Sequence record: MW602648.1
Direction: 5' to 3' (one strand)
Source: Escherichia phage vB_EcoM_fHy-Eco03
Length of the DNA: 57,011 nt
Positions 2,454 through 57,011 of the stretch are shown one piece after another. The position numbers and the translations under genes were made by a program. The notes under the pieces were generated by a model that had not been told where the DNA came from, searched no databases, and was given only the letters and a program-made list of their open reading frames with translations. Numbering within the stretch: position 1 is the first letter of the stretch; each line of letters begins with the position of its first letter.

Positions 2454-2456
2454 TGC

Positions 2457-5368: not shown

Positions 5369-5871
5369 ACATCATAGTTGAGGGACCTGACAATGCTGGT
5401 AAATCTACACTTATTAAGTTCCTTGAATCTAATTTGCGCCGCAGTGTTATTCATAATACTGTTGACAAGGATTCGACATCGGTTCTGGGTAAACAAGCTC
5501 AAGAATTATCGCTTGAAGGTAACATTATTTATGACCGCAGCGCTGTTATATCTGAGTATATCTACTGCCTGGTTCTTCAACGTGCGCCTGTAGTCCCTTT
5601 TAATATATCTCATGTAGCAGACTTATGCGATAATGCTATTGTCGTGTTCTGTCTGCCGCCGTTAGATAAGGTTTTGGCCACAACTAAAGACGAAATGCCT
5701 GGTGTGGTCGAAAATCTTGAAAAGCTATATAACCAGTATGACAACTTGATTGATGAGTTAGTTATGATGGGTAAACAGTTCTTTGTATATGACTGGACCA
5801 TTGAAGAAGATGGTGCAGAAGCAGCACTAGAATACATCAATGAACGTAACGATAAGGAGTGGACTAAATGA
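5365..5871 (+). CDS. P-loop deoxynucleoside monophosphate kinase (thymidylate-kinase-like)
   Basis: N-terminal Walker A IVEGPDNAGKST, as in dNMP and thymidylate kinases; size about 168 aa. Confidence 0.5.
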   Translation: MNIIVEGPDNAGKSTLIKFLESNLRRSVIHNTVDKDSTSVLGKQAQELSLEGNIIYDRSAVISEYIYCLVLQRAPVVPFNISHVADLCDNAIVVFCLPPLDKVLATTKDEMPGVVENLEKLYNQYDNLIDELVMMGKQFFVYDWTIEEDGAEAALEYINERNDKEWTK

Positions 5872-8841: not shown

Positions 8842-10389
8842 ATGACAATTAGTCCAAGCACTCCCAATGTAGCATATCAGCGTCCTGAGCTTGTCAAGAA
8901 TGCTGGTAAGTATACACTAATTAAGGACTGCATCGAAGGTCAGGAAGCGATTAAGCAGAAAGGTGATATTTATCTGCCGCGTCCTGACCCGACGAACTGC
9001 ACGGAAGAAAACCTTGCACGATACGAGTCGTATAAACGTCGTGCAGTGTTCTACAACATTATTGCACGTACGTTGTCTGGTATGACAGGCCTGGTATTCC
9101 AACAGGAACCAGATATGTTAATGCCTGACGATATGAGTGTACTGAAAGTTAACATCGATGGTGCAGGTGTTGGCGCTGTACAACAGATGCGTAAAACCTT
9201 CAAAACTGTTCTGGCATTCGGTCGAGCTGGTATTCTGACTGACTTCCCGCCGGCTAAAGAAGACGGTTCAGGTTTTACACGTGCCGAAGTAATGAACGGT
9301 GAAGTGCAACCCACAATCACGATGTTCATGCCTTGGCAGGTTATTAACTGGCGCCAGGAATACCGTGAAGGTAAAGTAACACTGACCCAGGTTGTTATCT
9401 GTGAACAGATTCCAGGCGCGACAGATGGCTTCCAGCAGGATTATACTCCTGTATGGCGTCAACTGTACCTGGATGATGAAGGCAATTGCCGTCAGACAAT
9501 CTGGATTAACGAAGGTGACAAAAACGCCAAGGACACATACGGTGGTGCGCTGTACGTTCGCCAGCAAGACTACCAGATGTCTGACTCCAAAGGTCAGCCG
9601 CTGAAGTTCATCCCGTTCACCTTTGTGGGGTCAGAAACAAACAACCCGGATATTGACCCGGCGCCAATGTACGACCTGGCAGTCCTGAACATTGCGCACT
9701 ACCGTAACTCAGCAGACTACGAAGAATCATGTTTCGTAACTGGTCAGCCTACTGTCTGGGCGTCTGGCCTTACTGAAGCGTGGATTAAAGACGTGTTAGG
9801 TGGTCAGGTTCGTCTCGGTTCTTACGGTGGTATTCCGTTGCCGCCAAACGCAGCCGTTGGCATGATTCAGACTAACCCTAACACTCAACCATTCGAAGCT
9901 ATGAAGCAGAAAGAAGCACAGATGATTGCAATCGGTGCTCGTCTGATTCGCGAGAATGGTAGTGTTGAACGACGTGAAGTTGAAATTAAGAACGAAGCAG
10001 CATCTGAAGCATCTTTGATTGTTACAGTTGCTCAGAACGTTGAAGCTGCTTACCGTAAAGCACTTGAGTGGTGTGGTTTGTTCTACGGTCACAGCAAAGA
10101 AAGCATTACGCTGTCGCTGAGTTACAACTTCATCTATAGTCAGATGACTTATCAGGAACGCCAACAGCTGGTTAACGAATGGCTTAGCGGTGCAATTTCG
10201 TTTACTGAATTGCGTACTAACCTTAAACAGGCAGGTATTGCACGACAGACTAACGAAGAAGCCAAGTCAGAAATTGATAATGAAATGGCTGAACGCGATG
10301 CCAGAGAAGTCGCCAAACAAGCTGAACTGGCTAAGCAAAACGAGCCGTCAAATAACACCAATACTGACCCGGAAAAAAATTCCGAATAA
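8842..10389 (+). CDS. Portal protein
   Basis: 515-aa ORF directly after the large terminase; acidic C-terminal tail; conserved gene order. Confidence 0.65.
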   Translation: MTISPSTPNVAYQRPELVKNAGKYTLIKDCIEGQEAIKQKGDIYLPRPDPTNCTEENLARYESYKRRAVFYNIIARTLSGMTGLVFQQEPDMLMPDDMSVLKVNIDGAGVGAVQQMRKTFKTVLAFGRAGILTDFPPAKEDGSGFTRAEVMNGEVQPTITMFMPWQVINWRQEYREGKVTLTQVVICEQIPGATDGFQQDYTPVWRQLYLDDEGNCRQTIWINEGDKNAKDTYGGALYVRQQDYQMSDSKGQPLKFIPFTFVGSETNNPDIDPAPMYDLAVLNIAHYRNSADYEESCFVTGQPTVWASGLTEAWIKDVLGGQVRLGSYGGIPLPPNAAVGMIQTNPNTQPFEAMKQKEAQMIAIGARLIRENGSVERREVEIKNEAASEASLIVTVAQNVEAAYRKALEWCGLFYGHSKESITLSLSYNFIYSQMTYQERQQLVNEWLSGAISFTELRTNLKQAGIARQTNEEAKSEIDNEMAERDAREVAKQAELAKQNEPSNNTNTDPEKNSE

Positions 10390-12272: not shown

Positions 12273-12304
12273 AAAGCTGCATCTGACGAGATGCAGCTTT
12301 TTTA
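12273..12304 (+). terminator. Rho-independent terminator after the major capsid gene
   Basis: Perfect 11-bp stem AAAGCTGCATC / GATGCAGCTTT with a 6-nt loop, followed by a T-run. Confidence 0.8.
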
Positions 12305-12325
12305 TACAAAAAGAAAGGGTGCATT

Positions 12326-12694
12326 ATGGGTGGCGCAAGAATCAAACCAGAACCTTCACACATTCGCGGAATATGTATTACAGAAGGTTGTATTAACCCT
12401 CAAGTACGCAGGGATAAAAATAATTATAGAGCACATTGTGCTTCTTGCCACAACAAACGTCATAACATAGGTCCATCGCGATTTAAATATAGAAAGTTTA
12501 AAAAAGATGTTTGTGAAGAATGCGGATTTGTACCAGTACATCCATGTCAGTTAGATGTTGACCACGTAGATGGTAACCATAAAAACGATGACCCTTCTAA
12601 TTTGCGTACTCTTTGCGCTAACTGCCATAGACTCAAAACATACCTTAACAGGGACTGTGTCTCTAACTCTTCAGGTTTACTTGTACAAAATTAG
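12326..12694 (+). CDS. HNH endonuclease
   Basis: Cys-rich N-terminus (CASCHNKRH) and HNH core DVDHVDGNHKNDDPSNLRTLCANCH; free-standing gene inside the structural operon. Confidence 0.7.
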   Translation: MGGARIKPEPSHIRGICITEGCINPQVRRDKNNYRAHCASCHNKRHNIGPSRFKYRKFKKDVCEECGFVPVHPCQLDVDHVDGNHKNDDPSNLRTLCANCHRLKTYLNRDCVSNSSGLLVQN

Positions 12695-36982: not shown

Positions 36983-37912
36983 TTAAACGGCCATTTGAAC
37001 TTTGATGTTAGCCTGTGGCTTATACTCATCAATCATATCTTGCACATCGGCAACCTGGAAGTCTGTCAACGGAACGTCTTCAATTGACTTGATAGACGGA
37101 CGGTTATCAGATGCAGGGTCATGGCAATCATGGTCTTTGAACAGACGTTTGCGGAACTGTTCAACTGCGTCGAGTGAGTTATTATACAGGTGGTAATCAC
37201 CCAAAGTAAACAACAAATCACCTGGGCGTTTACCTGTCTGAGCGGCCAGCATGATGAGCAGCAACTGGTGCAGCAGAATGTCATGAGGCAGACCCAGCAG
37301 AACATCAGCAGAACGCATATGGAACATCAGGTCCAGCTCGTTCTTTTCGTTTACAAAACACTGGAAGCCATGATAGCAAGGCGGCAGTGCCATATCTGCA
37401 AACTCTTCAGGGTTCCATGCCGTTACATACATACGGCGGTCAGCAGGATTAGTCTTCAGCGTTTCAATCAAACGCTCCAGCTGAGTTGTATACTCAGGAA
37501 CCTGATAACCAACAGGGTCACCGTACGTTTGGCCTTCAACCTTTACGCCGCAGATAAAGGGTTTAACCCATTGGGCGCCATACACTGGTCCCAAATCCCG
37601 ATTGTCAGGAGTTCCCCATTTGGCATTGGCAGCTTGCAGATTAGCTTCCCACCAATTGCATCCATGCCGTTTAAGTTCATCCACGTTAGTAATTCCGTTA
37701 ATGAAGCAGTAAAGCTCAGCAGCCACGGCCTTAATATTAACGGGCTTGAATAGCGGCACCATGAGCTTATTGTGGGTAAACTTAAGTCGAGCGCTAAAAC
37801 CGAAGCTGCGCTTAGTACCAACACCAGTACGATCGTTACTGCTCTCTCCCCCGGCTGTGAGCTCATTGAATAGGGTCTCCATCACATCGTCAACAGTATT
37901 AAAGGTGCGCAT
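36983..37912 (-). CDS. Thymidylate synthase-family enzyme, probably cytosine-specific (dCMP hydroxymethylase or methyltransferase candidate)
   Basis: Hand-aligned to E. coli ThyA from memory: NDRTG, DLGPVYG.QW, catalytic PPC (ALPPCYH), R-S-x-D, GD.HLY and C-terminal ...MAV. The residue matching ThyA Asn177 (PFNIAS) is Asp (PHDILL). ATG at 37912 overlaps the MazG stop. Confidence 0.8.
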   Translation of the reverse strand: MRTFNTVDDVMETLFNELTAGGESSNDRTGVGTKRSFGFSARLKFTHNKLMVPLFKPVNIKAVAAELYCFINGITNVDELKRHGCNWWEANLQAANAKWGTPDNRDLGPVYGAQWVKPFICGVKVEGQTYGDPVGYQVPEYTTQLERLIETLKTNPADRRMYVTAWNPEEFADMALPPCYHGFQCFVNEKNELDLMFHMRSADVLLGLPHDILLHQLLLIMLAAQTGKRPGDLLFTLGDYHLYNNSLDAVEQFRKRLFKDHDCHDPASDNRPSIKSIEDVPLTDFQVADVQDMIDEYKPQANIKVQMAV

Positions 37913-38514
37913 TATACATCCATCTCCATTTGTCCGCCTTTGGTCTGGTGCCACTCGACCACTTTATGAATGTCAGGTGCTGTCCAGCCTTCTGGCTTAA
38001 CGATGTCCTGACATGATTTGTGTTTGCTATCGCTTGCATCAGGTTTAGCACGTTCTTTCGCCATGTTGGCTTTTTGTACTTCGTCCCATGCTTCATCGAA
38101 TGGCCAGTTGTTATTAGCACACCATACGAAGATGTGATTAACCAGGCTTGCAAGGTGCTTGCAGTGAGTTGCTTCATCGTCAGTAAAATAGGCACGAAGC
38201 TCTTTTGCATTGAAGCGGTTCATGAATGAACATGGCTCAATGCCAGGCTGTACAGGATAATCGAAGTCATTGGTAAACCAGTGAACTTCATCGTACAGAT
38301 ACAGTGTACCAACAGCGATATAAACTGTATCAACCAGTGCATCCAGGAATTTACCCTTGTCATTTTCGTCCAAAGCTTCCTGGATTTCGTCTAGCTCTTC
38401 TACCAGACGGTCGTAGCGAAGTTTGAATTCTGGTTTACCACCCATGCTAAGTGGCTTGAGGTCAAACTTATTATGGAAAGCGATAACATCGCTTGCAGCT
38501 TTACTGAAATGCAT
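37912..38514 (-). CDS. MazG-like nucleoside triphosphate pyrophosphohydrolase
   Basis: All-alpha NTP-PPase motif EELDEIQEA...D; coupled to the thymidylate-synthase-family gene. Confidence 0.55.
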   Translation of the reverse strand: MHFSKAASDVIAFHNKFDLKPLSMGGKPEFKLRYDRLVEELDEIQEALDENDKGKFLDALVDTVYIAVGTLYLYDEVHWFTNDFDYPVQPGIEPCSFMNRFNAKELRAYFTDDEATHCKHLASLVNHIFVWCANNNWPFDEAWDEVQKANMAKERAKPDASDSKHKSCQDIVKPEGWTAPDIHKVVEWHQTKGGQMEMDV

Positions 38515-38960: not shown

Positions 38961-39000
38961 TTTATAAAAAGAAAAAGGACCTGTGGTCAGCAGGTCCTTT
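38961..39000 (-). terminator. Rho-independent terminator (minus strand)
   Basis: 10-bp stem AAAGGACCTG / CAGGTCCTTT (38974..38983 / 38991..39000) followed on the minus strand by UUUUUCUUUUU. Confidence 0.7.
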
Positions 39001-39487
39001 TGGATGTCAACGTAACAAGGATGGTGTTGCATGATGTCCCGAAGCGCGAGCTGAAGACACTTGAGTTGACTCTAACGGGAAAGGAGAGCATTCACACTGT
39101 GAGTTGCCGAAAAACCCGAAAGAGCCAACTAAACTGTTTTCAGTGACCGCCCTTCAAGCAGATTCCAACCGGTGGTCCATGGTAGCGAAGCACGTTTTGC
39201 CGGTCATACAGAACGCCTGAATCCAACAGGCAAGGGCATTTACCTAATCTCGGTCAGCGAGCAGACTCGAACTGCATTAAGTGTGACGCTTCAGCGCCTG
39301 AGTTATTGTGGATAACCTGCCATCCCGCGAGGATGTCAAAAAGGAAATGCCAAAGCGCCACACTTAATGCTACATTCAACTGAGCACCCTCACAAAACCA
39401 ACGCACCAGGCATGATGAAAAGGAGATGTAAAGTAAGGATACTCATTGAATGCACCTCCGAAGAGGTGCGTTCGTGATCAGCGCCGA
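39001..39487 (-). ncRNA. Candidate structured noncoding RNA or cis-element (ORF-free region)
   Basis: About 490 bp with no ORF of 60 aa or more in any frame and only trivial short ORFs; bounded by a UUCG-tetraloop hairpin (39452..39469) and the terminator at 38961..39000; lies inside a densely coded leftward operon. Confidence 0.3.
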
Positions 39488-39964: not shown

Positions 39965-40074
39965 TTTAAATTCCTCTATTAGTCCGCAGGGCTATTAATT
40001 CGTCATCACGAGAGTAAGTATATAGCACTATAAGATTTATGTACACACCTTTTTTAAACTTTTTTCATACGCGT

Positions 40075-40296
40075 CTAAAAAGGCACTTTATAGTCAAAAG
40101 ATTTACATCCGGTTGCCTGAATGCTTGCCGGTGGCATCTTACCACCAGCCAGTGCACATCCGGCGTTTGTAAAATGAACACACTGCACACAGCTCATGTC
40201 ATGCAGGATATTAATAAGTTGCCGGCGTTCTTCCGACGACAGCATCTTAACACGTTCAACTACTGCTTCAAACTGTTCTCGGTTGCCCAAAGCCAT
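40075..40296 (-). CDS. Hypothetical small Cys-containing protein (73 aa)
   Basis: ORF between the helicase and the low-complexity gene; overlaps the helicase 3' end. Confidence 0.3.
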   Translation of the reverse strand: MALGNREQFEAVVERVKMLSSEERRQLINILHDMSCVQCVHFTNAGCALAGGKMPPASIQATGCKSFDYKVPF

Positions 40297-41941
40297 TCCC
40301 CCAGTCGTAGTTCATGATTTGTGGGTGAGGTCGCTTAATCCAAACCTTAATGGCTTTAGGTATTGCAAGCTCACCTTTACGGCGTATAAATTCGTCGCAA
40401 GTCTCTGGCGGTTGAGTACCTGCTGCATTCTTCCACCAGATGTCTGCTAATGTCTTAGAGTTACCATACGCTTCAACGTTAACCCAGGTCGTAAAAATCT
40501 CCATGTTAGAATAGTATATAACCTTGATGCTGTCAGGTCGCCCTGCTTTCTGGAATAAAGCATAGTTTACAAGAGTTACTTCTTTGTCTTCAACTCTTAA
40601 CTTGCCGTCAGTCATTACATCTTCATTAGATGCCTCGCCAGCGATAGCCGGACCATTAGTTTTGAATAAAAACTCATGCCCGCAAAGTCTGTTCTCTTCA
40701 GGCTTACTACCTTTTGCTGGATGCTTACAGAACTTAGCTGCAAATCCACTTACCTGATGGCACACAGGGCATTCTTTACCACCCGGGTTACTTCGCTTAA
40801 TACCACCTTTTTTCTTTTTACCGACTCGTGGCGGTATAGCAGGGTCATCAATTGGGCCTAAGTTAATTGTGTTGCTGGTAAAGTCCATAACTAAACAGTT
40901 TTCTTTGCCAGGTGCAACACGTAAACCACGGCCCAGAATCTGTACCCACAAAGCGACTGAATCTGACGGACGCAATATAACAAGCAGGTCAATCTCTGGA
41001 TAGTCAAAACCTGTTGTCAATACGTTTACGTTGACACAAACACGATACACACCTGCTTTATAATCAGCAAGTGCTTGCTCACGTTCTTTCTTGCCGAGGC
41101 CGCCGTGAATAACTACAGCTGACCAGCCTCTTATCTCAAACTCGGCTGCTATATTATACGCATGCTCAACACTTACGGCAAATGCTAACACATGCTTTCT
41201 GTCGTGACCATAAGCCATTACTTCGCGTATTGCTGCCGATGTTATATCTGCCTGGTCTGCAGCTTGTTCAAGCTCTGACTGTATGTAATCACCCATCCTT
41301 GTACCAACATTACTTGTGTCAATCTTAGTTGCCACTTTCTTGTTGACAAGACGAGACAAGAAGCCTTCGTTAACCAGTCGGCTAAATGAATCCGGAGTTG
41401 TCAGGTCATAACAGATGTCGGTAAAGATACCACAATCCAGTAAGTGACCGCCTGCAAGACGGTATGGCGTTGCAGTTAACCCGCTGACCTTCAGCTTAGG
41501 ATTAACTTCTTTAAAGTGCGCAATAACACGACGATAAGTTGTTTCAGATTTCTCAGGAACAAGATGGGCTTCGTCGATAAAGATAAGATTGAACTTACCG
41601 GCTTCTTCCAGGTTGTTTACAATAGACTGAATAGAAGCTACAACGATTCTGCCGCTAAAGTCTTTACGACCTACGCCAGACGAATAGATTGATAATGGTG
41701 CATGTGGCCAGTGTCGAACAATTGCTTTAGCATCTTGCTCAACCAGCTCTTTGACGTGTGTCAGAATAAGAATACGCTGACGAGGATATTGGGTAAGAAT
41801 ATCCTTCATCAACATACCAAGCACAGGTGACTTACCTGAACCGGTAGGCATAACTATTAATGGGTTGCCGCTATAAGAGTTGAAGTAACTCCACCAGGCA
41901 GCTACTGCTTCTTGTTGATACCAGCGAGCTTCAAAAGCCAT
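40268..41941 (-). CDS. SF2 DEAD/DEAH-box DNA helicase
   Basis: Motif I MPTGSGKS, motif II FIDEAHLV, motif VI ILGRGLR; C-terminal Cys cluster CPVCHQ...CKHP suggests a zinc ribbon. Confidence 0.8.
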   Translation of the reverse strand: MAFEARWYQQEAVAAWWSYFNSYSGNPLIVMPTGSGKSPVLGMLMKDILTQYPRQRILILTHVKELVEQDAKAIVRHWPHAPLSIYSSGVGRKDFSGRIVVASIQSIVNNLEEAGKFNLIFIDEAHLVPEKSETTYRRVIAHFKEVNPKLKVSGLTATPYRLAGGHLLDCGIFTDICYDLTTPDSFSRLVNEGFLSRLVNKKVATKIDTSNVGTRMGDYIQSELEQAADQADITSAAIREVMAYGHDRKHVLAFAVSVEHAYNIAAEFEIRGWSAVVIHGGLGKKEREQALADYKAGVYRVCVNVNVLTTGFDYPEIDLLVILRPSDSVALWVQILGRGLRVAPGKENCLVMDFTSNTINLGPIDDPAIPPRVGKKKKGGIKRSNPGGKECPVCHQVSGFAAKFCKHPAKGSKPEENRLCGHEFLFKTNGPAIAGEASNEDVMTDGKLRVEDKEVTLVNYALFQKAGRPDSIKVIYYSNMEIFTTWVNVEAYGNSKTLADIWWKNAAGTQPPETCDEFIRRKGELAIPKAIKVWIKRPHPQIMNYDWGNGFGQPRTV

Positions 41942-42004
41942 TGTTAACCTCTCTTCGTTTCTATGTGTCTATTATATCACTTCCATGTGATAAGGTACAC
42001 TCCT

Positions 42005-42877
42005 TTATAAAGAGAAGGCTACTGCTGGTCCATCATCCTTTCGTGGGTATACATCAGCCATTGTGTAATCCCCACAAGCTGCCATCTGAGTTGCGATGGT
42101 TTCGAGATTGTGTTCATGCTTGGTGCAGTACCACACCTTGCCGCTTACAGGTTTACTGTAGGCACAGGTACGGCAATTCCTGTCTGGTGCCGCTCCCTTG
42201 TTGCAGATGTGTGTAAACTCACACATACGGCATTCCCACCACAGCGGTGATTCACTGATGCGCGGCATATCCAAACCAGACTCTGCTTCAATAACACTCT
42301 TAGCCCGGTCAAGTATAATGTCTGCAGACAGATTATCACGGTGTACAATCTCTATGTACAGCTCATCCGTGTTCTTATTGATTGCCATGTACACACACTT
42401 ATTCAGATTGAGTAAGTGCATATATACTTGCATCTGGTCATAGTGCACGGGCTTACACTCTTTTACCTTATGCTTAGCAAACTCCTTAAACGATTTGTCT
42501 CCATGAGTTTTAAACTCCAACAGGAACCATTCATCGTCTATCTTCGCCACACCATCGCATGACCCTGAGAAGATACCGTTAAACGCTGACACTCGCCATT
42601 GTTTATTGGTCTTAGGGTTTACAGGATAAAGCTCCTGCGCAATTGGTTTAAGCCATTCGAGGAACCGTACTTCTTCCCGTGAACCTCGGTCAAACAATCG
42701 AAGCTGCTTGGCATTAAACTTTTCTTTGTACGACCAGTGCAGCACATGCCACAAATAACGATAGCACTTATTACCAATTTGTGACGCACCCAGGTGACCA
42801 CGTCGCTCCTCCTTCTCATGGGCTTCAACAATCTTAACATCAATTCGCTTCTTCAGCGTTTCGGCCGTAATACTCAT
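42005..42877 (-). CDS. Cas4/RecB-like PD-(D/E)xK exonuclease with Cys cluster
   Basis: One N-terminal Cys (KCYRYLWH) plus C-terminal CRMCEFTHIC...CRTC, the Cas4-type arrangement. Start placed at the internal ATG (42877) with AGGGG Shine-Dalgarno; the track ORF extends to 42925. Confidence 0.45.
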   Translation of the reverse strand: MSITAETLKKRIDVKIVEAHEKEERRGHLGASQIGNKCYRYLWHVLHWSYKEKFNAKQLRLFDRGSREEVRFLEWLKPIAQELYPVNPKTNKQWRVSAFNGIFSGSCDGVAKIDDEWFLLEFKTHGDKSFKEFAKHKVKECKPVHYDQMQVYMHLLNLNKCVYMAINKNTDELYIEIVHRDNLSADIILDRAKSVIEAESGLDMPRISESPLWWECRMCEFTHICNKGAAPDRNCRTCAYSKPVSGKVWYCTKHEHNLETIATQMAACGDYTMADVYPRKDDGPAVAFSL

Positions 42878-43388
42878 TATAGCCCCTGTTAGCAAACTGA
42901 CCATGCATTTGAATACGCATTTCATCCAGCCAGTTTATTAGTTTAGTCCTGTTGTCTTCTGTCGCCAACATTGTCTTGGTCTTGCGTTTGCCGTCCTTAG
43001 TAATGCTGGCAACATAATATGGTTTACCTTTTAGTGTTACTCTTGATAACCCTTTTACACCAGATGTGTTATTAAGATATATATTTGTGTTGCAACGGTT
43101 ATCGCTACGTGTTGCTGCTCTGACATATTTATTGTCCTCTCGCGTTAGACTCGGATGGTCAACTTCCGGTGGTTCATACCCAAACTGCATGAAGTAGATT
43201 ACACGATGTACAAGGCACTGTCTCCCTTTAATGCGCACTGTTTTGTAACCGTCTTTACGTAAAGAACCGGCTTCCGTGCCGGCTTTAACTTTATTATTGG
43301 CCCTGTTAATCTTGTTCATTAACCGGCCATCTTCAACATAGAACAGCTCTGACAACTCAGCTTGTGTAGCCGGAATCGGCACAAACAT
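42840..43388 (-). CDS. HNH homing endonuclease
   Basis: GYKTVRIKGRQCLVHRVIY...EVDH...NRCNT pattern typical of phage HNH homing endonucleases; overlaps the neighbouring genes. Confidence 0.55.
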   Translation of the reverse strand: MFVPIPATQAELSELFYVEDGRLMNKINRANNKVKAGTEAGSLRKDGYKTVRIKGRQCLVHRVIYFMQFGYEPPEVDHPSLTREDNKYVRAATRSDNRCNTNIYLNNTSGVKGLSRVTLKGKPYYVASITKDGKRKTKTMLATEDNRTKLINWLDEMRIQMHGQFANRGYNEYYGRNAEEAN

Positions 43389-43806
43389 ATTCTACTCCTG
43401 AATCAGTTAAAAAAGCCTTTGCCTCGAGCATAGATGCATGCCATTTTGAGGCAGAATAAGCGTCTAGAGAGCTAGTCACTAGCCTTATAATAGGTATATT
43501 CGCCTTAAGCATTTTAGAGCACTCTAGGCATGGCGGATATGTGACATAAACGGTCACACCTTCTGTCAGTTGTGCCTTTAAATTAGCCATACAATTAACT
43601 TCTGCATGGATTGTATACACATTCTTCAGTTCCGCTGGGATAACCGACAAGCCATCCAGCTGACGAGGGAATCCATTGTAGCCTGTTGACAGTATGCGAT
43701 TGTCTTGTGATACTATAACACATCCAACTTTACGCTTATCATCTTTGGACCAGCTACCTATAAGGTGAGCCAGCTCCATAAATCGGCTATCCCAAAGGTT
43801 CTGCAT
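43357..43806 (-). CDS. dCMP deaminase
   Basis: Zinc-binding motifs HAE (IHAEVNCMA) and PCxxC (PPCLECSKM); AGGAG Shine-Dalgarno before the ATG at 43806. Confidence 0.8.
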   Translation of the reverse strand: MQNLWDSRFMELAHLIGSWSKDDKRKVGCVIVSQDNRILSTGYNGFPRQLDGLSVIPAELKNVYTIHAEVNCMANLKAQLTEGVTVYVTYPPCLECSKMLKANIPIIRLVTSSLDAYSASKWHASMLEAKAFLTDSGVEYVCADSGYTS

Positions 43807-43824
43807 GTTAAAGCTCCTGCGCAC

Positions 43825-43847
43825 AAAAAGGGTAGCCGAAGCTACCC
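43825..43847 (-). terminator. Intrinsic terminator hairpin (minus strand)
   Basis: GGGTAGC-cgaa-GCTACCC followed on the minus strand by a U-run (plus-strand AAAAA at 43825..43829). Confidence 0.6.
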
Positions 43848-43865
43848 TTTTATTAATCTACGGAA

Positions 43866-44393
43866 TTACTGGTTCCAAGGAGCGTCAGCGTCGTCTTCTT
43901 CACCAGGAGCAGCACCTGCAGAAGCAGCACCAGCTACAGCGTTAGCTGCAGTTTGAGTGTTGCTCGCGACGTTGCCAGTCACAGGAGCAGTTGCGGCAGC
44001 AGCAGATTTGTATTCACGCACATCGTTTGATGGGTCATATTCACCGGTCTTGTCGACTTTGATACCGACCTTACCAGCTACGATGCGGTTTTCCAGCATA
44101 TCAGTGGACTTCAGTTCCACGATACCTACAGCACGGCACAGCGTAGACAGTTTGCGATGGCCGATTTCAACAGCCTGGGCGTTCGGGTTCGAATAGGTAA
44201 TCATATCGAACACAGTGCGGTTATTAAACTCGCCACCCTGTACTTTCAACTGCAGTGACAGATAAGAACCGGTACCTGCTTTAGTAGGCTTCAGCTCTAC
44301 CTGTTCAATCATCAAATCGTACCAGCCTTTAGGAATCGGGTCAAAAGACTGTTGCGGTTCGACGTTTGCACTGTTGAATTGTAACTCTGCCAT
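43866..44393 (-). CDS. Putative ssDNA-binding protein
   Basis: 175 aa with a disordered Ala/Gly-rich region and acidic C-terminus (GEEDDADAPWNQ); adjacent to the Sak4-like ATPase gene. Confidence 0.35.
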   Translation of the reverse strand: MAELQFNSANVEPQQSFDPIPKGWYDLMIEQVELKPTKAGTGSYLSLQLKVQGGEFNNRTVFDMITYSNPNAQAVEIGHRKLSTLCRAVGIVELKSTDMLENRIVAGKVGIKVDKTGEYDPSNDVREYKSAAAATAPVTGNVASNTQTAANAVAGAASAGAAPGEEDDADAPWNQ

Positions 44394-44494
44394 TTTATGG
44401 TTTCCTTAGTTTAGTTTATTTGTTTAACGCATCGGAGCTACGTTCGGCTCGTGAGAAAGATTATACGCCACTTTTATTCATGGCGTAAACACTT

Positions 44495-45388
44495 TTATTC
44501 TTCGGTTTTATCTTCCGATACGGCTTCTTCCTGTCGTTGCTTGGCCAGCCACGCCGCATGCTTCTCTTTGTGGGCATCCGAACCGATTTTGGTTACAGTC
44601 ATAAGAGGGTCAGCAGACAGCTCATGTGCATCCATACCATTTAACAGCAGATACGTATCAGATTCCGTGTGATAGTACCACAGTTTCTGAGGATGTAAAC
44701 CCTGTAGCTTGGAGTAAATCCAACCCAGGTCTGCTGGCTCATGCTTATCCAGTGTACGACCTGGTGCATTACGGCACTTAGCATCCCATTGGAAGTCTGG
44801 CTGAGTCTGCACGTAGCGTGCTGAGTTACCGTCGTTGTCAGGTGCACTCATACGCATAGCAAGTACAGCATCCACAAGGTATGGCAGTTGCTTAGGAAGT
44901 TGTTGACCTGGCATAAGAGGAGAGTACAGCATTGCGCCGCTGACCTCATCTTTATTCTTCTCCAGCTTACAGATGTAAGCGATACTGAAAGGCAGGTCAC
45001 GGAACTGGCGCATGATATACATCATTTTATCTGCTACAGCACCGTAAGCCTGTCGCTTGTCGTTTACCTGAGTCTTCTCATACTCAAGGCATACTTCTGC
45101 AACGTCAGATAAAGAATCAAAAACAAGGTGCTTGTACTTCTTGGCACCTGGATTCTCTGTCAGCCATTTGTACAGGTCTAGAATATCCTGGAAGGTTTTA
45201 ATCTTCGTGGTATCAATGTCTGCATCTGCAATTGACATCAACCCGCCTTCCGCATCTACAATCAAAGTGCTTTCACGCGGAAGAGTACGGGCCATGCTTG
45301 TTTTACCTACGCCAGACTGACCATAGATAACGACCTTAGGCAGCTTGTTCTCAGCTGCCTCTTTAGTTGAACGGATTTCTACTGCCAT
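44495..45388 (-). CDS. Sak4-like RecA-fold ATPase (recombination)
   Basis: N-terminal Walker A VVIYGQSGVGKTS; Walker B-like HLVFDSL; size about 297 aa. Confidence 0.5.
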   Translation of the reverse strand: MAVEIRSTKEAAENKLPKVVIYGQSGVGKTSMARTLPRESTLIVDAEGGLMSIADADIDTTKIKTFQDILDLYKWLTENPGAKKYKHLVFDSLSDVAEVCLEYEKTQVNDKRQAYGAVADKMMYIMRQFRDLPFSIAYICKLEKNKDEVSGAMLYSPLMPGQQLPKQLPYLVDAVLAMRMSAPDNDGNSARYVQTQPDFQWDAKCRNAPGRTLDKHEPADLGWIYSKLQGLHPQKLWYYHTESDTYLLLNGMDAHELSADPLMTVTKIGSDAHKEKHAAWLAKQRQEEAVSEDKTEE

Positions 45389-45619
45389 TTAATACCCCTC
45401 TGTTAACATCTCTTCGTCACAGTACATGTTATAAAGCGCGTGTTCCGCTTCGTCCAGTGTGGCAAACTCTTCGCCGCAGATAACAAAACGAGATACATCA
45501 TCTTCGTCAGGATACTGCTCTTCAATCTGCCAGGTGCCACGTAAGCCGTAACACCAGAAGTCGCTGTCGTCGCCGGCTTTAAGTTTACGGGTTTGTTTGA
45601 ATTGATTGAACGTATACAT
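45389..45619 (-). CDS. Hypothetical protein (76 aa)
   Basis: ORF coupled to the Sak4-like gene. Confidence 0.4.
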   Translation of the reverse strand: MYTFNQFKQTRKLKAGDDSDFWCYGLRGTWQIEEQYPDEDDVSRFVICGEEFATLDEAEHALYNMYCDEEMLTEGY

Positions 45620-45676
45620 GATGCTCTCCTTGAGTTGATAAAAGTATTATACCCCTTTTAAGAGGTAATGTACACT

Positions 45677-46111
45677 TTATTTATACACTTCAATGGTACA
45701 CAAGTCGTGGTAGTGTCCCATTGCATGTAGTAACCGTCGCAGGTTACAAAGTGCTTGCTCAGGAGTGAATGCTTCAACCCACAAAGGGACCATGAGGCCG
45801 CACACAGCACCTTGGTCAGGTAGCTTGACACGGTAAAGATAGGTGTTAGTGTAAACACGGGTTACACTCATGACGTTCAGCATAGCATGAAGCTTAATAT
45901 CCTGTTGCTTCCAGAACTCATGGAACTCTTTGCTATTTACAATAGCACGGAACAAATGCTCTTTACTGGCAATAGCAGTTGCACGAATAAGAAAACGACA
46001 ACCAAAGAATTCGTCGACGTTAATGGTTTCAACAGCAAAGACAGGTGCATCAGTAGATGAACATTTATGCAGGTAGATAACAGACTTGGTGGCTTCCATA
46101 ATATTCTCCAC
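45677..46111 (-). CDS. Hypothetical protein (144 aa)
   Basis: ORF. Confidence 0.4.
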   Translation of the reverse strand: MENIMEATKSVIYLHKCSSTDAPVFAVETINVDEFFGCRFLIRATAIASKEHLFRAIVNSKEFHEFWKQQDIKLHAMLNVMSVTRVYTNTYLYRVKLPDQGAVCGLMVPLWVEAFTPEQALCNLRRLLHAMGHYHDLCTIEVYK

Positions 46112-46147
46112 AGTGTTAGAAAGCGGGACCGAAGTCCCGCACAGTTA

Positions 46148-47212
46148 TTACAGCAGTGATTTAAGCTGGTCGATAGATTTCAACAGCATTGCGATTTCAG
46201 GGTCACGCTCTGCCATCATGCGAAGCATGTCACCACGCATCATTTCCTGCACACGTTTGTCGAGTGCAGCTTCAGCAGCTTTCAGGTTCTCTTCGGCCTG
46301 CTGACGCGCACGATACATACCCAGGTCAACTACAGACACCAGCCATTTCAGGTCATAGTGAGTTGGGTTGTGGTCAAGCACATTAACTACTTCAACAACC
46401 TTAGTACCACACAGCTCTGGGTACATTTTATTTTCAACACGCACAACCGCTTCATCGCCGATGTTAACCTGACCACGATACTTGTAAGTATACAGCTTGC
46501 CGCCATCTTCAAACTGTACCTGCACATAACGGATTGGCTCTTCCTGCACGATAGCTGCAGCAGTCATAACACGACGCTCCAGTGCATTGAAGTCCAGAAC
46601 CAGCGCTTTAGGTTGTTCTTTCTTACCGTAAGCAGCTTGCATCTTCGCTGCAAGATACTGCTCGGAGTAAGTTACTTTGATGTTGCGCTTAAACGCCTGG
46701 CAACCATAAACCATCCAGCTACCAGTTTCATCAACGCAGTAGATTTGGTTAGAAGGTGCAGAAGCGCTTGCGCCATCTTTGGTTTTGGAAACGCGATACA
46801 GTTTGCCATATTCCAGGTTTACCTTAGGCTGTACAGCCTGCGCCCATTCAAGGTTTTCCTTAACGAACGGCTGGAAACGTTCACGGCTAAAGTTATGCTT
46901 CAGACCATGGTCGTCGATAACCCAGATGTTGTCGTGCTGACCGCCGAAAGAACCGAGGTTAGCATATACTTTACCCTGAGTCAGCAGTGAAGTGCTACCT
47001 TCATCAACACAGATAACGAAGTTGATTGCGTCATGAGCTTTACCGTTTTTGTCGAATACTTGTGCCATGGTCTTATTTCCTTGTTTAGTGACAGATACAA
47101 TACTTGTTTTGTGGGTACCAGGTGCTAAGCGCTCACCATCTTTTGCGTCAACCTTAATTTTAACTCGCAGGCCGCGACCGAGCATTTGAATCAATTCCAT
47201 TAAGAACCTCAT
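46148..47212 (-). CDS. Hypothetical protein (354 aa)
   Basis: ORF with coiled-coil-like C-terminus. Confidence 0.5.
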   Translation of the reverse strand: MRFLMELIQMLGRGLRVKIKVDAKDGERLAPGTHKTSIVSVTKQGNKTMAQVFDKNGKAHDAINFVICVDEGSTSLLTQGKVYANLGSFGGQHDNIWVIDDHGLKHNFSRERFQPFVKENLEWAQAVQPKVNLEYGKLYRVSKTKDGASASAPSNQIYCVDETGSWMVYGCQAFKRNIKVTYSEQYLAAKMQAAYGKKEQPKALVLDFNALERRVMTAAAIVQEEPIRYVQVQFEDGGKLYTYKYRGQVNIGDEAVVRVENKMYPELCGTKVVEVVNVLDHNPTHYDLKWLVSVVDLGMYRARQQAEENLKAAEAALDKRVQEMMRGDMLRMMAERDPEIAMLLKSIDQLKSLL

Positions 47213-53203: not shown

Positions 53204-53357
53204 TATATAAAAGATAGAGAGTATTTAAAACAAGTACTTAGGCATCCTTATTCATGTAATCCGGTTATATGTATTATATAATTATCAGATTGGATAAGAA
53301 AAAGTTATTGCCGGCGCAAAAAGAAAAAAAGCCGGATTGCTTTTGAAATTATAGACA

Positions 53358-53386
53358 TTTACACAAGTCTTAAACTATGTTACAAT
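53358..53386 (+). promoter_or_regulatory. Copy of the terminal-repeat promoter (TTTACA-N17-TGtTACAAT)
   Basis: Duplicate of 46..74. Confidence 0.5.
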
Positions 53387-53425
53387 AGTTATTATTTACA
53401 ATGTTAAGCACAATAGGAATTCATC

Positions 53426-53623
53426 ATGAGCTATACTGACCAACAAATTGACACAGCAGCGGTTTTATTGGCACAAGAGGTAGATTTATTGCATTCTTTG
53501 ATGAATGCTAGTCATGATAGAGCTGAAACTATCAAGAATCAGATACGGGAAATTTGGTCTCAGCAGGTCAGCAACGGTGTATCTTTGGACTTTTTGGTGT
53601 GCCGCCTGAGAGGTCAACTGTAA
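53426..53623 (+). CDS. Hypothetical protein (duplicate of 114..311)
   Basis: Identical copy in the right terminal repeat. Confidence 0.5.
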   Translation: MSYTDQQIDTAAVLLAQEVDLLHSLMNASHDRAETIKNQIREIWSQQVSNGVSLDFLVCRLRGQL

Positions 53624-54048
53624 TGGTAAACATAAGAAGCAAGGGCCAGAACTTTGAGCGTAAAATGTCGAAAATGTTCAATGAATCGTTCGGGTTATCT
53701 ACTGAGAGAAATCTCCAGCAATCTATAAACGGTGGAGATGATTTGATGGGAGTCCCGTTCTTCAGCGTTGAGCTCAAGAAGCACAACACCAAAGCTATCG
53801 GGACTTGGTGGAAGCAATGTGCGGAATCAGCACGGCGTCAAAGCAAGATGCCAGTGCTAATCTATGAGATGCCACGGCAAAAGCCCACTGTCGTGATGAG
53901 AATTGAGGACGTCAGTCAAGCTTTGGCTGAGGCACCACTGTTGCCAGCGGCTAGTAACAGGCTCTTTGTGGGCTTGGTGGAATTAACATGGGAACAATTT
54001 TGCCGGGTCTACAACTTTTACGTTGCGCCCGGCGTCGAGGTTGCTTAG
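53623..54048 (+). CDS. Putative PD-(D/E)xK-family nuclease (duplicate of 311..736)
   Basis: Identical copy in the right terminal repeat. Confidence 0.4.
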   Translation: MVNIRSKGQNFERKMSKMFNESFGLSTERNLQQSINGGDDLMGVPFFSVELKKHNTKAIGTWWKQCAESARRQSKMPVLIYEMPRQKPTVVMRIEDVSQALAEAPLLPAASNRLFVGLVELTWEQFCRVYNFYVAPGVEVA

Positions 54049-54088
54049 GTTGATGCTTGCATCAACACCAGTCAACTGTAGTTGACAC

Positions 54089-54274
54089 TTAGTCTTGTTT
54101 CAACTCATCGCAGATAACGCGTTGATTTTGAGCTGGTACAAACCCGAGTTCGAGCAAAGTGTAAGGACTATCGGCGACGCATTGTTCAATGGTAGTCCAT
54201 TCAGTTTTGGATTCAATAATTTTGTAACTACAATCATGAGTAGCCACACATGTTGCCAGGATTAAGCCAATCAC
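54089..54274 (-). CDS. Hypothetical protein (duplicate of 777..962)
   Basis: Identical copy in the right terminal repeat. Confidence 0.45.
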   Translation of the reverse strand: MIGLILATCVATHDCSYKIIESKTEWTTIEQCVADSPYTLLELGFVPAQNQRVICDELKQD

Positions 54275-54450
54275 AAGTAATCTCCTTCAACCAGAAACTC
54301 AAACAATTGGTTGTAAACGTTGCAACCCTTAGCGAAAGAGCTTTCAGCAGGTTTACCATCGCGGACGATCATCATATATTCACCGCCATGAATATCCACC
54401 CAGTATTGCATGCCACCCTTGACAGGGTTACGTTGTAAGAATTTAAACAT
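54271..54450 (-). CDS. Hypothetical protein (duplicate of 959..1138)
   Basis: Identical copy in the right terminal repeat. Confidence 0.5.
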   Translation of the reverse strand: MFKFLQRNPVKGGMQYWVDIHGGEYMMIVRDGKPAESSFAKGCNVYNQLFEFLVEGDYL

Positions 54451-54695
54451 TATTTGCTCCTTACTCCAAGTTTATTCAATAACCACACTGTCATGTCAAC
54501 CCAGGTTAACGGTACAGTTTTCGGGGGTTGATAAGACCAGCACTTTCCAGCTCTTTCCGCAATTTCTTCGCGCCTTGCCGCTTGGCGTAATACTGCATCG
54601 TCAGAAGTGCCGGCAGAAAAAATATCGGCAATACCAGATAAATCGCCTCGATGAACACGTCCAGCAAGTTCATGCAGTTGCTCCTCAGAAAACAT
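54450..54695 (-). CDS. Hypothetical protein (duplicate of 1138..1383)
   Basis: Identical copy in the right terminal repeat. Confidence 0.5.
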   Translation of the reverse strand: MFSEEQLHELAGRVHRGDLSGIADIFSAGTSDDAVLRQAARREEIAERAGKCWSYQPPKTVPLTWVDMTVWLLNKLGVRSK

Positions 54696-54804
54696 AAGAC
54701 AACACCATTAGAATGATGATAAAGACAGCAACGGCTTTCGCCATGCCACGAGATTCATTATACACCGGATTTTCAGTGGTGTACTCAACAACATGCTTTT
54801 TCAT
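54685..54804 (-). CDS. Small hydrophobic protein (duplicate of 1373..1492)
   Basis: Identical copy in the right terminal repeat. Confidence 0.45.
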   Translation of the reverse strand: MKKHVVEYTTENPVYNESRGMAKAVAVFIIILMVLSYVF

Positions 54805-54861
54805 ACAACCTCCAGTGTGAGAAATATCAATTGATGGCACCCGCAGATGCCATCTCAGATA

Positions 54862-55434
54862 TTACTCGCCTTCAGTCTCAGATTTTTCTTCAGTCTGAGG
54901 TGCTGCGGCTTCGTAGACCGTCTTACCATCAGTGATTTTACCGGATTTAACATCGTTACGGTAATAACTCATGTAAGACTGTACAACACGTTTTGATTTA
55001 ACATCATCTTCAGCCATTTCACAGGCTTTCATGGCATCCGCAAGAGCGAGTTTTGAATCGTCTTTGTCTGCCAAGTTGTAATCTTTGAAGACCGCGTAAC
55101 AAGTATCTTTGGTACTCGGTCCTGAAGATTTACGAGTACAACCAGTTGAACCGGAACGACTAGCTTTCTTCACTTCAACATGCTCAACCTCAAGACTTTC
55201 AAGTGCCTTATACAAAGCAGGCACCAGAACATCCTTGCTGTCTTTGTGGGTGACAGATGCTTCATCATCAAGACTTTTAATCATCTTGACCAGTTGAGCA
55301 TTTTGGAACTCTTTGAGAGCGCCTTTCTCAACAACGATGCAACTCATCATGCCTTCCATTGACAGACCATCTTTGATGCCTTCAACAGAAAAAGCGGAAG
55401 TTAAGTAAACATACTGAGTGATAGAATTTTCCAT
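54862..55434 (-). CDS. Hypothetical early protein (duplicate of 1550..2122)
   Basis: Identical copy in the right terminal repeat. Confidence 0.6.
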   Translation of the reverse strand: MENSITQYVYLTSAFSVEGIKDGLSMEGMMSCIVVEKGALKEFQNAQLVKMIKSLDDEASVTHKDSKDVLVPALYKALESLEVEHVEVKKASRSGSTGCTRKSSGPSTKDTCYAVFKDYNLADKDDSKLALADAMKACEMAEDDVKSKRVVQSYMSYYRNDVKSGKITDGKTVYEAAAPQTEEKSETEGE

Positions 55435-55564
55435 GATTTTGTCCTCTTGTTTGTGGTTGACATCATTATAATGTCATGACTTCAGTTGTTTGTACATCTC
55501 AAATCACACATTTTTGTGCAATTTTTATCATGCGGTACGAATTATACCGCATTGTAAAAATTAC

Positions 55565-55765
55565 TCAAGAAATAATTACCTCAGTAACTACTACAGTGTT
55601 AGCAGTCACTAATGTCAAAACTTTACCAGCTTTTGACCTCACAGCTTTCAACCGTAATTGTGACTGTGTGTAATTATTCCACTCTTCATCACTGAGCACG
55701 GTCCTGGTAACTTCAGGTCGTTCATCTTTGCCAAGCTTCACTACTGTAACTTTGATTAATGGCAT
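55565..55765 (-). CDS. Hypothetical protein (duplicate of 2253..2453)
   Basis: Identical copy in the right terminal repeat. Confidence 0.45.
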   Translation of the reverse strand: MPLIKVTVVKLGKDERPEVTRTVLSDEEWNNYTQSQLRLKAVRSKAGKVLTLVTANTVVVTEVIIS

Positions 55766-55768
55766 TGC

Positions 55769-55996
55769 TTAAACCTCAAATTTTGATTCGTCATATTCAG
55801 GGTCAGTCACATCACGAGTGACACAATTTTGGAGTGCAGTCCAGTATTTTTGGACTTCAGCACCCTCCATGTATAGTGTCCAACCGTGATAGTAACCCTC
55901 GAAACTATTCCAGGTCCGTTCCCAAATCTTTCCGTCTTCGAGCTTATACTCAGTTGGTCTTGAGTCAAACTCACGGATAGTTGTGAATGTTACCAT
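55769..55996 (-). CDS. Hypothetical protein (duplicate of 2457..2684)
   Basis: Identical copy in the right terminal repeat. Confidence 0.45.
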   Translation of the reverse strand: MVTFTTIREFDSRPTEYKLEDGKIWERTWNSFEGYYHGWTLYMEGAEVQKYWTALQNCVTRDVTDPEYDESKFEV

Positions 55997-56065
55997 GCGT
56001 TGTTACGCCTCTGTTGAATAATTTCAATCATGAACTATCACAACTTTGATAGTTCATTGTTGAAA

Positions 56066-56245
56066 CTATTGTAACTTTGTACTAATTTGAATTGTCAATC
56101 TAAACTCTTCAAGTAAGTTATCAATGTTGGATTTATCTTCCACAGCGGTAGAAATTTGATCACTTACAATTTGAGCATTTGACTCAAGAAGTTCAATCAA
56201 ATGTGTCAATTCGTCTGCTGTCAATGTCAATTCTTTCATCATCAT
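56066..56245 (-). CDS. Hypothetical protein (duplicate of 2754..2933)
   Basis: Identical copy in the right terminal repeat. Confidence 0.4.
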   Translation of the reverse strand: MMMKELTLTADELTHLIELLESNAQIVSDQISTAVEDKSNIDNLLEEFRLTIQISTKLQ

Positions 56246-56412
56246 TCTCCTGAGTTAAATTGTGTGTCAATTTCAATAACTTTGGAACGTACATATTCCA
56301 GACAGTCATCATAATCGTATGAAGTGTAACTCGGCATTGGAGAATCCAACCCTTCGTTAACATTCCATTCACCTTCATTAACATCAAACCAGATGATTAA
56401 TTGAGTATGCAT
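56242..56412 (-). CDS. Hypothetical protein (duplicate of 2930..3100)
   Basis: Identical copy in the right terminal repeat. Confidence 0.45.
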   Translation of the reverse strand: MHTQLIIWFDVNEGEWNVNEGLDSPMPSYTSYDYDDCLEYVRSKVIEIDTQFNSGE

Positions 56413-56582
56413 TGTTATTACTCCTGTGTTAAGTTGTTTCAGGTGAGACTACTAAACTACTAATAGTCTCTGGATGAAATAACTTCACAGAGAAACAAAA
56501 CATGTACCAAATTGTTAAAGAGCAAAAGACACCATTGACCATCTACCAGATGTGTCTGTTGACTGGTTAAGTACTAACTACA

Positions 56583-56774
56583 CTAAGTAACTACATGCAT
56601 CCTCCTGAACCGTTTCTGTGTCAAGTTGTTCAACACATTCAATAAATACATTATGTCAAAGTCCCTGTTGGTTGTACACAATAGAAGTGCAAGTTTGTGC
56701 AAGCTTTTAGAAATGATAATCATCTGCGGTTGATAGTGATTCTCGTATGCAATTGATATAGTAACGCTCGTCAC
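56583..56774 (-). CDS. Hypothetical protein (duplicate of 3271..3462)
   Basis: Identical copy in the right terminal repeat. Confidence 0.3.
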   Translation of the reverse strand: MTSVTISIAYENHYQPQMIIISKSLHKLALLLCTTNRDFDIMYLLNVLNNLTQKRFRRMHVVT

Positions 56775-57011
56775 TACTCAGTGTGAAACAGTCGACGGGG
56801 GTAAACGTCACACACCGGTGCTATATTAGTTCCCCGGCGCAATTTTTATAAAAAATACAATTTCGTTTGTAATCGTAGACATACGGTATAGTTGCGGCCC
56901 GGTACCGTCACGGTGAGTTGTGATTACGATTGTAATGATAACGCACGTTACTATTCACTCTGAAGGGGTGCCGGGGGGTAATTGTCACCTAGGGGTGTTA
57001 ATTTAAGCCCC

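Follow-up and report, generated by a model that had tools for sequence, protein, structure and literature searches.

A deaminase allele and a free-standing HNH gene apparently imported together into a Rosemountvirus-like Escherichia phage, a probable case of homing with co-conversion

The genome of Escherichia phage vB_EcoM_fHy-Eco03 (MW602648.1), of which we analysed the whole stretch of 57,011 bases (hereafter the window), carries between the genes of an SSB and of a Cas4-domain exonuclease a deaminase gene whose 3' end is overlapped by a gene for an HNH endonuclease. Judged from sequence comparison, the deaminase allele is foreign to a genome that otherwise resembles that of Salmonella phage KE25, and so are the HNH gene and the initial 13 codons of the Cas4 gene. 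In the explanation that we hold to be probable, a functional zinc deaminase of the dCMP-deaminase family stands beside a free-standing HNH homing gene, which would be spreading by conversion and dragging the deaminase allele along. The window is that of a Rosemountvirus-like Salmonella/E. coli myophage: over positions 40000..47000, its identity is 96% with Salmonella phages KE25 and KE26, 92% with phage KM and 81% with Erwinia phage SOI901, and about 74-75% with a group of around fifty Rosemountvirus-like phages.

The limits of the foreign segment were located by alignment to KE25. With blastn, positions 41901..42877 align at 97.7% and positions 43653..44500 at 90%, and nothing aligns between them. 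A column-wise identity scan gave 97-100% in the SSB gene (44400..43892) and in the Cas4 gene (42845..42300), as against 40-67% over the deaminase gene and the intergenic region upstream of it. The same pattern is seen in the proteins, the deaminase being 54% identical to its KE25 counterpart while the Cas4, SSB, Sak4 and helicase proteins range from 99.1 to 99.7% (Cas4 99.7%, SSB 99.3%). Over the deaminase gene and its two flanking genes, nucleotide identity is 77/78/78% between KE25 and SOI901 and 99/57/98% between the window and KE25. The congruence of the former comparison shows that the window, and not KE25, is the recombinant. The first 39 nt of the Cas4 gene are 74% identical to KE25 and encode an unchanged peptide, and identity rises to about 98% right after the HNH stop. 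The drop in identity is thus bounded by the SSB stop and the HNH stop, which defines an imported cassette of about 1.03 kb. The coordinates of this cassette and of all other features are collected in Table 1.

Table 1. Features of the deaminase-HNH locus, its relatives in other sequences and the pyrimidine genes of the window. Positions are those of the window unless another sequence is named.
Feature	Position	Strand	Description	Basis
Imported cassette	42840..43865	-	about 1.03 kb; hairpin, deaminase, HNH, 13 synonymously recoded Cas4 codons	identity to KE25
HNH gene	42840..43388	-	182 aa, free-standing HNH endonuclease	PHROG 99, tblastn
Deaminase gene	43357..43806	-	149 aa, dCMP-deaminase family	Pfam PF00383, PHROG 174, PDB sequence matches
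H67-A68-E69	43600..43608	-	deaminase motif	read from sequence
P92-C93-L94-E95-C96	43519..43533	-	deaminase motif	read from sequence
Deaminase matches in the PDB			human DCTD 2W4L; PBCV-1 7FH4; S. mutans 2HVV; T4 1VQ2; S-TIM5 4P9C	PDB sequence matches
Terminator-like hairpin	43826..43851	-	AAAAGGGUAGC-UUCG-GCUACCCUUUU and T-run, between SSB stop and deaminase Shine-Dalgarno	
Cas4 gene	42005..42877	-	290 aa, Cas4-domain PD-(D/E)XK exonuclease	Pfam PDDEXK_1, PHROG 1990
SSB gene	43866..44393	-	DUF669, upstream flank of the cassette	Pfam DUF669 3.5e-15
P0001	L011, 2.45-kb contig		same SSB-deaminase-HNH-Cas4 order; deaminase 99%, HNH 97%, DNA 98% to the window	
P0003	L012, 1.1-kb contig		deaminase 78%, then 178-aa HNH (72% identical) and Cas4 start	
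P0002	L010, 53.9-kb scaffolds		deaminase 84%, 32-nt spacer, Cas4, without HNH	
Spacer of L010	ENA ERZ28640338 scaffold_152, 6448..6479		32 nt	
ThyA homologue	36983..37912	-		Pfam Thymidylat_synt 7.7e-60
PRA-PH/MazG-like nucleotide pyrophosphohydrolase	37912..38514	-	abuts the ThyA homologue	Pfam PRA-PH 2.5e-9, PHROG 671 1e-24
DHFR	4694..5368			
dNMP/thymidylate-kinase-like protein	5365..5871			

Compared with every relative inspected, this genome has gained the HNH gene by insertion. In KE25, KM, SOI901, BP63, renfri, AV127 and S144 the deaminase gene abuts or overlaps the Cas4 gene directly and the HNH gene is absent; it is also absent at this site in UPF_BP2, whose locus is disturbed, with a split Cas4 gene and an unannotated deaminase. 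No HNH orthologue above 60% identity was found in the phage collection of 50,697 records, and a 'distant' blastn search of positions 42878..43652 against the phage collection gave no match. Compared with the naive sites of the KE25, BP63 and S144 types, the start codon and Shine-Dalgarno sequence of the HNH gene occupy the place of those of Cas4. An earlier note on this DNA, made from the letters alone, had placed a deaminase next to an HNH endonuclease and a Cas4-like nuclease, and all three genes are indeed found on the minus strand at the stated positions. Its proposal of a mobile-element insertion beside a metabolic gene, to be checked by gene order, agrees with the absence of the HNH gene at this site in these relatives, where the gene is hence not conserved. 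It falls short in one respect, as the HNH gene was not merely inserted beside the deaminase gene: the whole deaminase allele was imported too.

The HNH protein was assigned by profile and by homology. It matches PHROG 99 'HNH endonuclease' at 6.6e-37, and tblastn matches it, at 35-41% identity, to annotated homing endonucleases in 1,687 phage records, among them JenK1 and T5 hegF/F-TflVI. Its homologues P0123-P0126 carry PF13392, and an alignment of it with six homologues from databases (alignment A4) shows no variation at residues D77, H78, N97 and N100. A search of NCBIfam with the HNH protein returned no match, and no paralogue of it was found within the window. By its PHROG 99 profile, its homology and its behaviour, the predicted protein is of the free-standing HNH homing-endonuclease kind known from phages.

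Its gene is translationally interlocked with both neighbours. The overlap with the 3' end of the deaminase gene, which the earlier note had pointed out, amounts to 32 nt (43357..43388). The HNH ATG (43386..43388) and an AGGAG Shine-Dalgarno sequence (43395..43399), 6 nt apart, both lie within the deaminase tail, and the HNH stop is 38 nt inside the Cas4 gene. Compared with the copy on L012, the HNH gene of the window has a pN of 0.22 against a saturated pS of 0.82, and the deaminase gene has dN/dS values of 0.09-0.13 relative to the copies on L010 and L012. Read from these substitution patterns, both genes are under purifying selection and encode maintained proteins.

Only three close relatives of the deaminase were found in 5.8 billion proteins (P0001 to P0003 in Table 1), and beyond the window the HNH gene is seen at this site only on two short metagenomic contigs, L011 and L012, which derive from sequencing runs ERR11594185 and SRR33991142. 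IMG/VR and JGI metagenome contigs yielded no close relative of either protein, their sole match being a deaminase relative at 36%. The third relative, on L010, has the deaminase without the HNH gene. The flanks of L010 align to BP63, S144 and KE25 at 72-86%, and only the deaminase and the spacer fail to align; a second backbone, like that of BP63, therefore has this deaminase type within identical break points. The occurrence of the cassette in two backbones with the same break points is consistent with homing co-conversion, and recombination alone could also produce it.

The spacer of L010 retains traces of the HNH gene. In the HNH frame it reads MFVLIPVTQAD-IHK-QFANGGCDE followed by a stop, and it matches the N terminus of the HNH protein and its C-terminal HGQFANRG motif. 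Of the HNH gene it retains only 11 codons from the start and about 10-13 from the end, joined in frame. Residues G163 and F165 of the HGQFANRG motif do not vary even among distant HNH homologues on unrelated contigs. Since the termini are kept in the HNH frame and G163 and F165 are invariant in distant homologues, this spacer is more likely an in-frame deletion scar of the HNH gene, and we abandoned the idea that L010 is a naive empty site because its spacer keeps N- and C-terminal codons in the HNH frame. Sites of the KE25, BP63 and S144 types are the truly naive ones. Together with the deaminase tail, the L010 spacer forms a 23-codon open reading frame (ORF), MFVLIPVTQADIHKQFANGGCDE and a stop, that ends across the Cas4 ATG. 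We also considered whether the C-terminal tail of the HNH protein (NEYYGRNAEEAN before its stop) was captured from the ancestral deaminase tail (DEYNSRDLEEKD before its stop in KE25). This idea was rejected because both tails are the -1 frame of the conserved N-terminal coding sequence of Cas4, MSITAETLKKRID. A visual comparison of the Cas4 start region in the three HNH-bearing sequences revealed no consistent 'immunity' polymorphism.

The assignment of the deaminase to its family is strong. Its match to Pfam dCMP_cyt_deam_1 (PF00383) reaches 72.8 bits (E 2.3e-20) against a cut-off of 25, the deaminase-fold match that the earlier note had suggested looking for, and its match to PHROG 174 'dCMP deaminase' has an E-value of 1.7e-37. 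All five of its PDB matches at E <1e-5 are dCMP or dCMP/dCTP deaminases, while the TadA and RibD profiles of NCBIfam reach only E 1e-3; the protein lies far under the cut-off of the NCBIfam ComEB equivalog (54.6 vs 219 bits). The zinc-binding HAE and PCxxC motifs that the same note had named can both be read in the sequence, the second as PCLEC, and are invariant in four members of the deaminase clade. A GYNG motif is also present. On these matches the protein is a PF00383 member of the dCMP-deaminase branch. Its ATG is preceded by an AGGAG Shine-Dalgarno sequence (43814..43818). A GTG further upstream, at 43824, adjoins the T-run of the terminator-like hairpin and is therefore an improbable start. 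This hairpin, between the SSB and deaminase genes, folds at -19.1 kcal/mol with a z-score of -3.2 against shuffled sequences; a scan with a consensus terminator pattern did not list it, and folding confirmed it instead.

The mechanism that we propose would start with a mixed infection, in which a relative lacking the HNH gene has its cognate region nicked or cut by the HNH enzyme. The genome with the HNH gene would serve as the template for repair, which the Sak4/SSB/Cas4-exonuclease module of the phage itself could plausibly carry out. In this way the HNH gene would be copied across and the adjoining deaminase allele co-converted with it, as in intronless homing with marker co-conversion. Later decay or deletion of the HNH gene would leave the imported deaminase allele and a scar. 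The tract is one-sided, comprising the whole deaminase gene and 13 Cas4 codons; speculatively, this would fit cleavage inside or upstream of the deaminase gene. The distribution of the HNH gene is sporadic: in the window, L011 and L012 it is found at one and the same site, flanked by conserved genes, and relatives have HNH-less sites.

Several points weigh against homing as the explanation. The match of the HNH protein to Pfam HNH_3 reaches 15.8 bits, under the cut-off of 24.8. The canonical NN...NL stretch in the region of the middle Asn is two residues shorter than in Pfam-positive relatives, and the weak score is attributed to this shortening between the catalytic residues. An AlphaFold model built from an alignment of 7 sequences has a mean pLDDT of 63, with the catalytic residues 76-112 below 50. 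A Foldseek search of the PDB with this low-confidence model gave no match at E <=0.001, the best having an E-value of 0.1 and a TM-score of <=0.21. The argument for a scar concerns about 39 nt, partly constrained by the ribosome-binding site and start of Cas4. Finally, the sample consists of three sequences with the HNH gene and one lineage with the scar, two of these being short contigs, and break points at gene boundaries would also be expected from ordinary mosaic recombination followed by selection.

This last process provides the main competing account, to which we assign a rather low probability. A divergent relative would have supplied the deaminase module through recombination, homologous or illegitimate, with end points at gene boundaries, and the HNH gene would be a passive passenger, its product inactive or not site-specific here and the exchange not of its making. 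Break points at the SSB stop and the Cas4 start are typical of phage mosaicism, the region has undergone other small indels (renfri has an additional ORF, AV127 a partial duplication of SSB) and the catalytic region of the HNH protein deviates from the Pfam consensus, all of which this account accommodates. It is less easily reconciled with three other observations. Wherever the foreign deaminase allele was found, in two or more distinct backbones, the HNH gene or a remnant of it was present too; purifying selection acts on the HNH gene even though synonymous divergence has reached saturation; and a second, unrelated HNH insertion in the genome also coincides with a switch of identity to KE25.

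We consider it very improbable that the HNH protein has been domesticated, as a nuclease degrading host or competitor DNA or acting in replication and repair with Cas4, Sak4 and the helicase, and was passed down vertically in a rare lineage while other lineages lost it: its gene is indeed embedded in a recombination/replication operon, translationally coupled to it and under purifying selection, but it is absent at this site in all cultured relatives inspected, its nearest named homologues are free-standing homing endonucleases at unrelated loci of unrelated phages, the apparent deletion scar shows it to be dispensable, and its flanks are 99% identical to those of an HNH-less phage, which excludes long vertical co-descent with the backbone.

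The second HNH gene of the window (12311..12694, plus strand; 127 aa) is unrelated to the first and matches Pfam HNH PF01844 above the cut-off (2.1e-8). It directly follows the gene of the major head protein and is absent from KE25, where window positions 12290..12676 correspond to KE25 9812..9826. Around it, identity to KE25 passes from 96% upstream to 81% downstream, and this switch may be another nuclease-associated exchange. Two other Rosemountvirus genomes, KE24 (PP856723.1 51289..51816) and CF2 (KY608966.1 131..610), have HNH genes at other loci whose products are about 37% identical to that of the deaminase-HNH locus, and the KE24 gene adjoins thymidylate kinase and DHFR genes. From this placement, the nucleotide-metabolism genes of this phage group seem to attract HNH genes repeatedly.

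On the other side of the cassette, the earlier note's identification of a Cas4-like nuclease is borne out by matches to PHROG 1990 'Cas4-domain exonuclease' (4e-94) and, above the cut-off of 22, to Pfam PDDEXK_1 (24.3 bits). Alignment to KE25, KM and SOI901 set its true start at the ATG at 42877 (MSITAE), not at 42925. Its translation shows the motifs D...EFK and QxxxY and the cysteine pattern C38...C-x2-C-x5-C. The protein scores 15.9 bits against the CRISPR-associated Cas4 equivalog TIGR00372, whose cut-off is 65, and no CRISPR context was seen near its gene. The Cas4, deaminase and HNH genes share a recombination/replication operon with those of a Sak4-like AAA_24 ATPase, the DUF669 SSB and an SF2 helicase; the minus strand carries every gene from about 33 to 50 kb of the window. 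A promoter-like match at 42876..42903, ending at the Cas4 ATG, is probably due to chance.

Inspection of this operon in the relatives gave some further observations. The deposited Cas4 annotations of KE25 and KM (L001 and L002, 3506..4483) begin 105 nt too early and overlap the deaminase gene by 143 nt; the conserved MSITAE ATG lies at locus position 4378. In renfri, a 501-nt ORF lies between the helicase and Cas4 genes (L004 2404..2904). In AV127, a 294-nt ORF between the deaminase and SSB genes (L005 3882..4175) duplicates part of the SSB gene, with 60% identity to SSB residues 60-148. The deaminase operon region seems to be an indel hot spot.

We then considered the role of the deaminase, which would act in the pyrimidine pathway of the phage together with the ThyA homologue, the PRA-PH pyrophosphohydrolase, DHFR and the dNMP-kinase-like protein (Table 1). 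The genome contains a single ThyA homologue: no second ThyA and no convincing ThyX motif were found in it. The segment RSADVLLGLPHDILL of the phage ThyA aligns over RSxDxxLGxPFNIAS of solved thymidylate synthases. At the position of E. coli Asn177, the residue by which thymidylate synthases specify uracil, it has an aspartate (GLPHD, 'lphd' over 'pfn'), and at that of His147 a tyrosine. The aspartate is invariant in five lineages, namely the window, SOI901, BP63, L010 and S144. An Asn177 to Asp change switches thymidylate synthases from dUMP to dCMP, and Asp at this position marks modified-cytosine phage contigs (PMC8670742). ThyA, PRA-PH and dCMP-deaminase domains co-occur specifically in such contigs (PMC8670742; 10.1101/2024.12.05.627091). 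Some 'dCMP deaminases' are 5-methylcytosine (5mC)-selective and have been proposed to make dTTP from 5-methyl-dCTP, as in Xp12; selectivity for 5mC or preference for dCTP is polyphyletic among deaminases, so that 5mC selectivity is not predictable from sequence, and no sequence rule for it could be extracted from that study (10.1101/2024.12.05.627091). The DNA of S144 resisted every enzyme tried other than SspI and PacI, which recognise sites made up of A and T alone; its authors identified no gene responsible for a modification (PMC7432712).

We infer that the substrate of the deaminase is dCMP, converted to dUMP, or, given the Asp177-type ThyA, 5-methyl-dC nucleotides, converted to dT nucleotides. 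The plainest possibility, to which we give a little less than an even chance, is that the enzyme converts dCMP to dUMP and raises dTTP in a phage of 45% G+C whose host has roughly 52% G+C, the DNA being unmodified. The family assignment and the closest solved structures, which are dCMP deaminases, speak for it; the authors of S144 read the pathway in this way (PMC7432712), and 5mC selectivity could in any case not be predicted from sequence (10.1101/2024.12.05.627091). Against it stands the only ThyA homologue, with Asp at the Asn177 position throughout the group: as this residue switches the enzyme from dUMP to dCMP, the phage would depend on the host ThyA to use dUMP. The co-occurrence of ThyA, PRA-PH and deaminase is moreover the signature of modified-cytosine phage contigs, and the cutting of S144 DNA at A/T-only sites alone also speaks against unmodified DNA.

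The deaminase may alternatively belong to a cytosine-replacement pathway. The C terminus of the ThyA homologue (...IKVQMAV), which is like that of thymidylate synthases, and the phage DHFR lead us to lean towards reductive methylation over hydroxymethylation. In its fullest form the proposal is a doubtful one, which we advance tentatively: Rosemountvirus- and Loughboroughvirus-like myophages would replace cytosine with 5mC, or another 5-substituted cytosine, by means of the Asp177 ThyA, the PRA-PH protein as a dCTPase-like enzyme and the dNMP kinase; the deaminase would act as in Xp12, and the HNH enzyme, obliged to act on DNA modified throughout, would drive the horizontal replacement of this gene from one phage lineage to another. 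The analogy with T4 that the earlier note had drawn, in words that concerned T4 itself, receives some support, appearing more apt than a plain dTTP-supply reading suggests because of the Asp177-type ThyA, its PRA-PH neighbour and the restriction resistance of S144; it equally allows an Xp12-like role.

Some features concern the window as a whole. Its ends are an exact direct repeat of 3,699 bases (1..3699 = 53313..57011), most likely a product of the assembly, circularly permuted or over-extended, and not a terminal repeat of biological origin, which leaves a unique length of about 53.3 kb (about 53,312 bases). GATC sites are extremely depleted in this unique part, with 7 observed for about 205 expected from base composition. 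CCWGG sites are enriched (140 vs 77 expected), and the counts of GAATTC, CCGG, GCGC and AATATT are close to expectation. No tRNA genes were found in the window; SOI901 has tRNA-Gln and tRNA-Pro genes upstream of the helicase operon, at the position equivalent to 39000..39450.

The locus is nothing categorically new: it is a clear, ordinary and textbook-style selfish HNH gene beside a nucleotide-metabolism gene. It is an unusually well resolved case, in which the cassette limits are precise, two independent backbones have received the cassette and a deletion scar is probable; taken together, these features would span the homing-gene cycle from invasion through co-conversion to loss, in a phage group used in Salmonella and E. 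coli biocontrol. The side observation on ThyA may matter more than the cassette itself, as the invariant Asp, the PRA-PH neighbour and the deaminase form a candidate pathway for the restriction-resistant DNA of S144 (PMC7432712).

Compared with known systems, the deaminase can be likened, by family and by gene signature, to the 5-methyl-dCTP deaminase of Xp12 and to metagenomic mSCD-B5 (10.1101/2024.12.05.627091): it belongs to the same Pfam family, and an Asp177 ThyA, a PRA-PH protein and a deaminase are encoded in one genome without a second thymidylate synthase. Unlike in those systems, it lies about 5.4 kb from the ThyA gene, outside the +/-3 kb window used in that work. With T4 Cd, human DCTD, the S. 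mutans dCMP deaminase and the bifunctional dCMP/dCTP deaminase of PBCV-1 (7FH4) it shares the HAE, PCxxC and GYNG motifs; it differs from them in its short length (149 aa), and about 40% of its residues match human DCTD and 7FH4 in the printed alignments. The Cas4-like protein resembles the Cas4-domain exonucleases of phage Sak4/SSB modules in its PD-(D/E)XK motifs, its C...CxxCx5C pattern and its Sak4-like AAA_24, DUF669 SSB and SF2 helicase neighbours, and it is unlike CRISPR Cas4, failing the TIGR00372 cut-off.

The HNH gene is best compared with the free-standing HNH homing genes of phages, such as the F-Tfl/heg genes of T5, mobE of T4 and the I-HmuI-type genes of SPO1 and SP82. It differs from these in being known from its sequence alone and in its shortened HNH_3 motif. 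It also overlaps both neighbours, taking the position of the Cas4 start codon, and its tract is strongly one-sided, with the whole deaminase gene against 13 Cas4 codons. Like them, it is a small HNH ORF of sporadic distribution between conserved DNA-metabolism genes, its product is 35-41% identical to proteins annotated as homing endonucleases, T5 hegF among them, and the neighbouring allele was replaced together with it. Intronless homing with co-conversion of flanking markers has been described for segG and mobE of T4, and the arrangement in the window would, by analogy, work as the seg and mob genes do.

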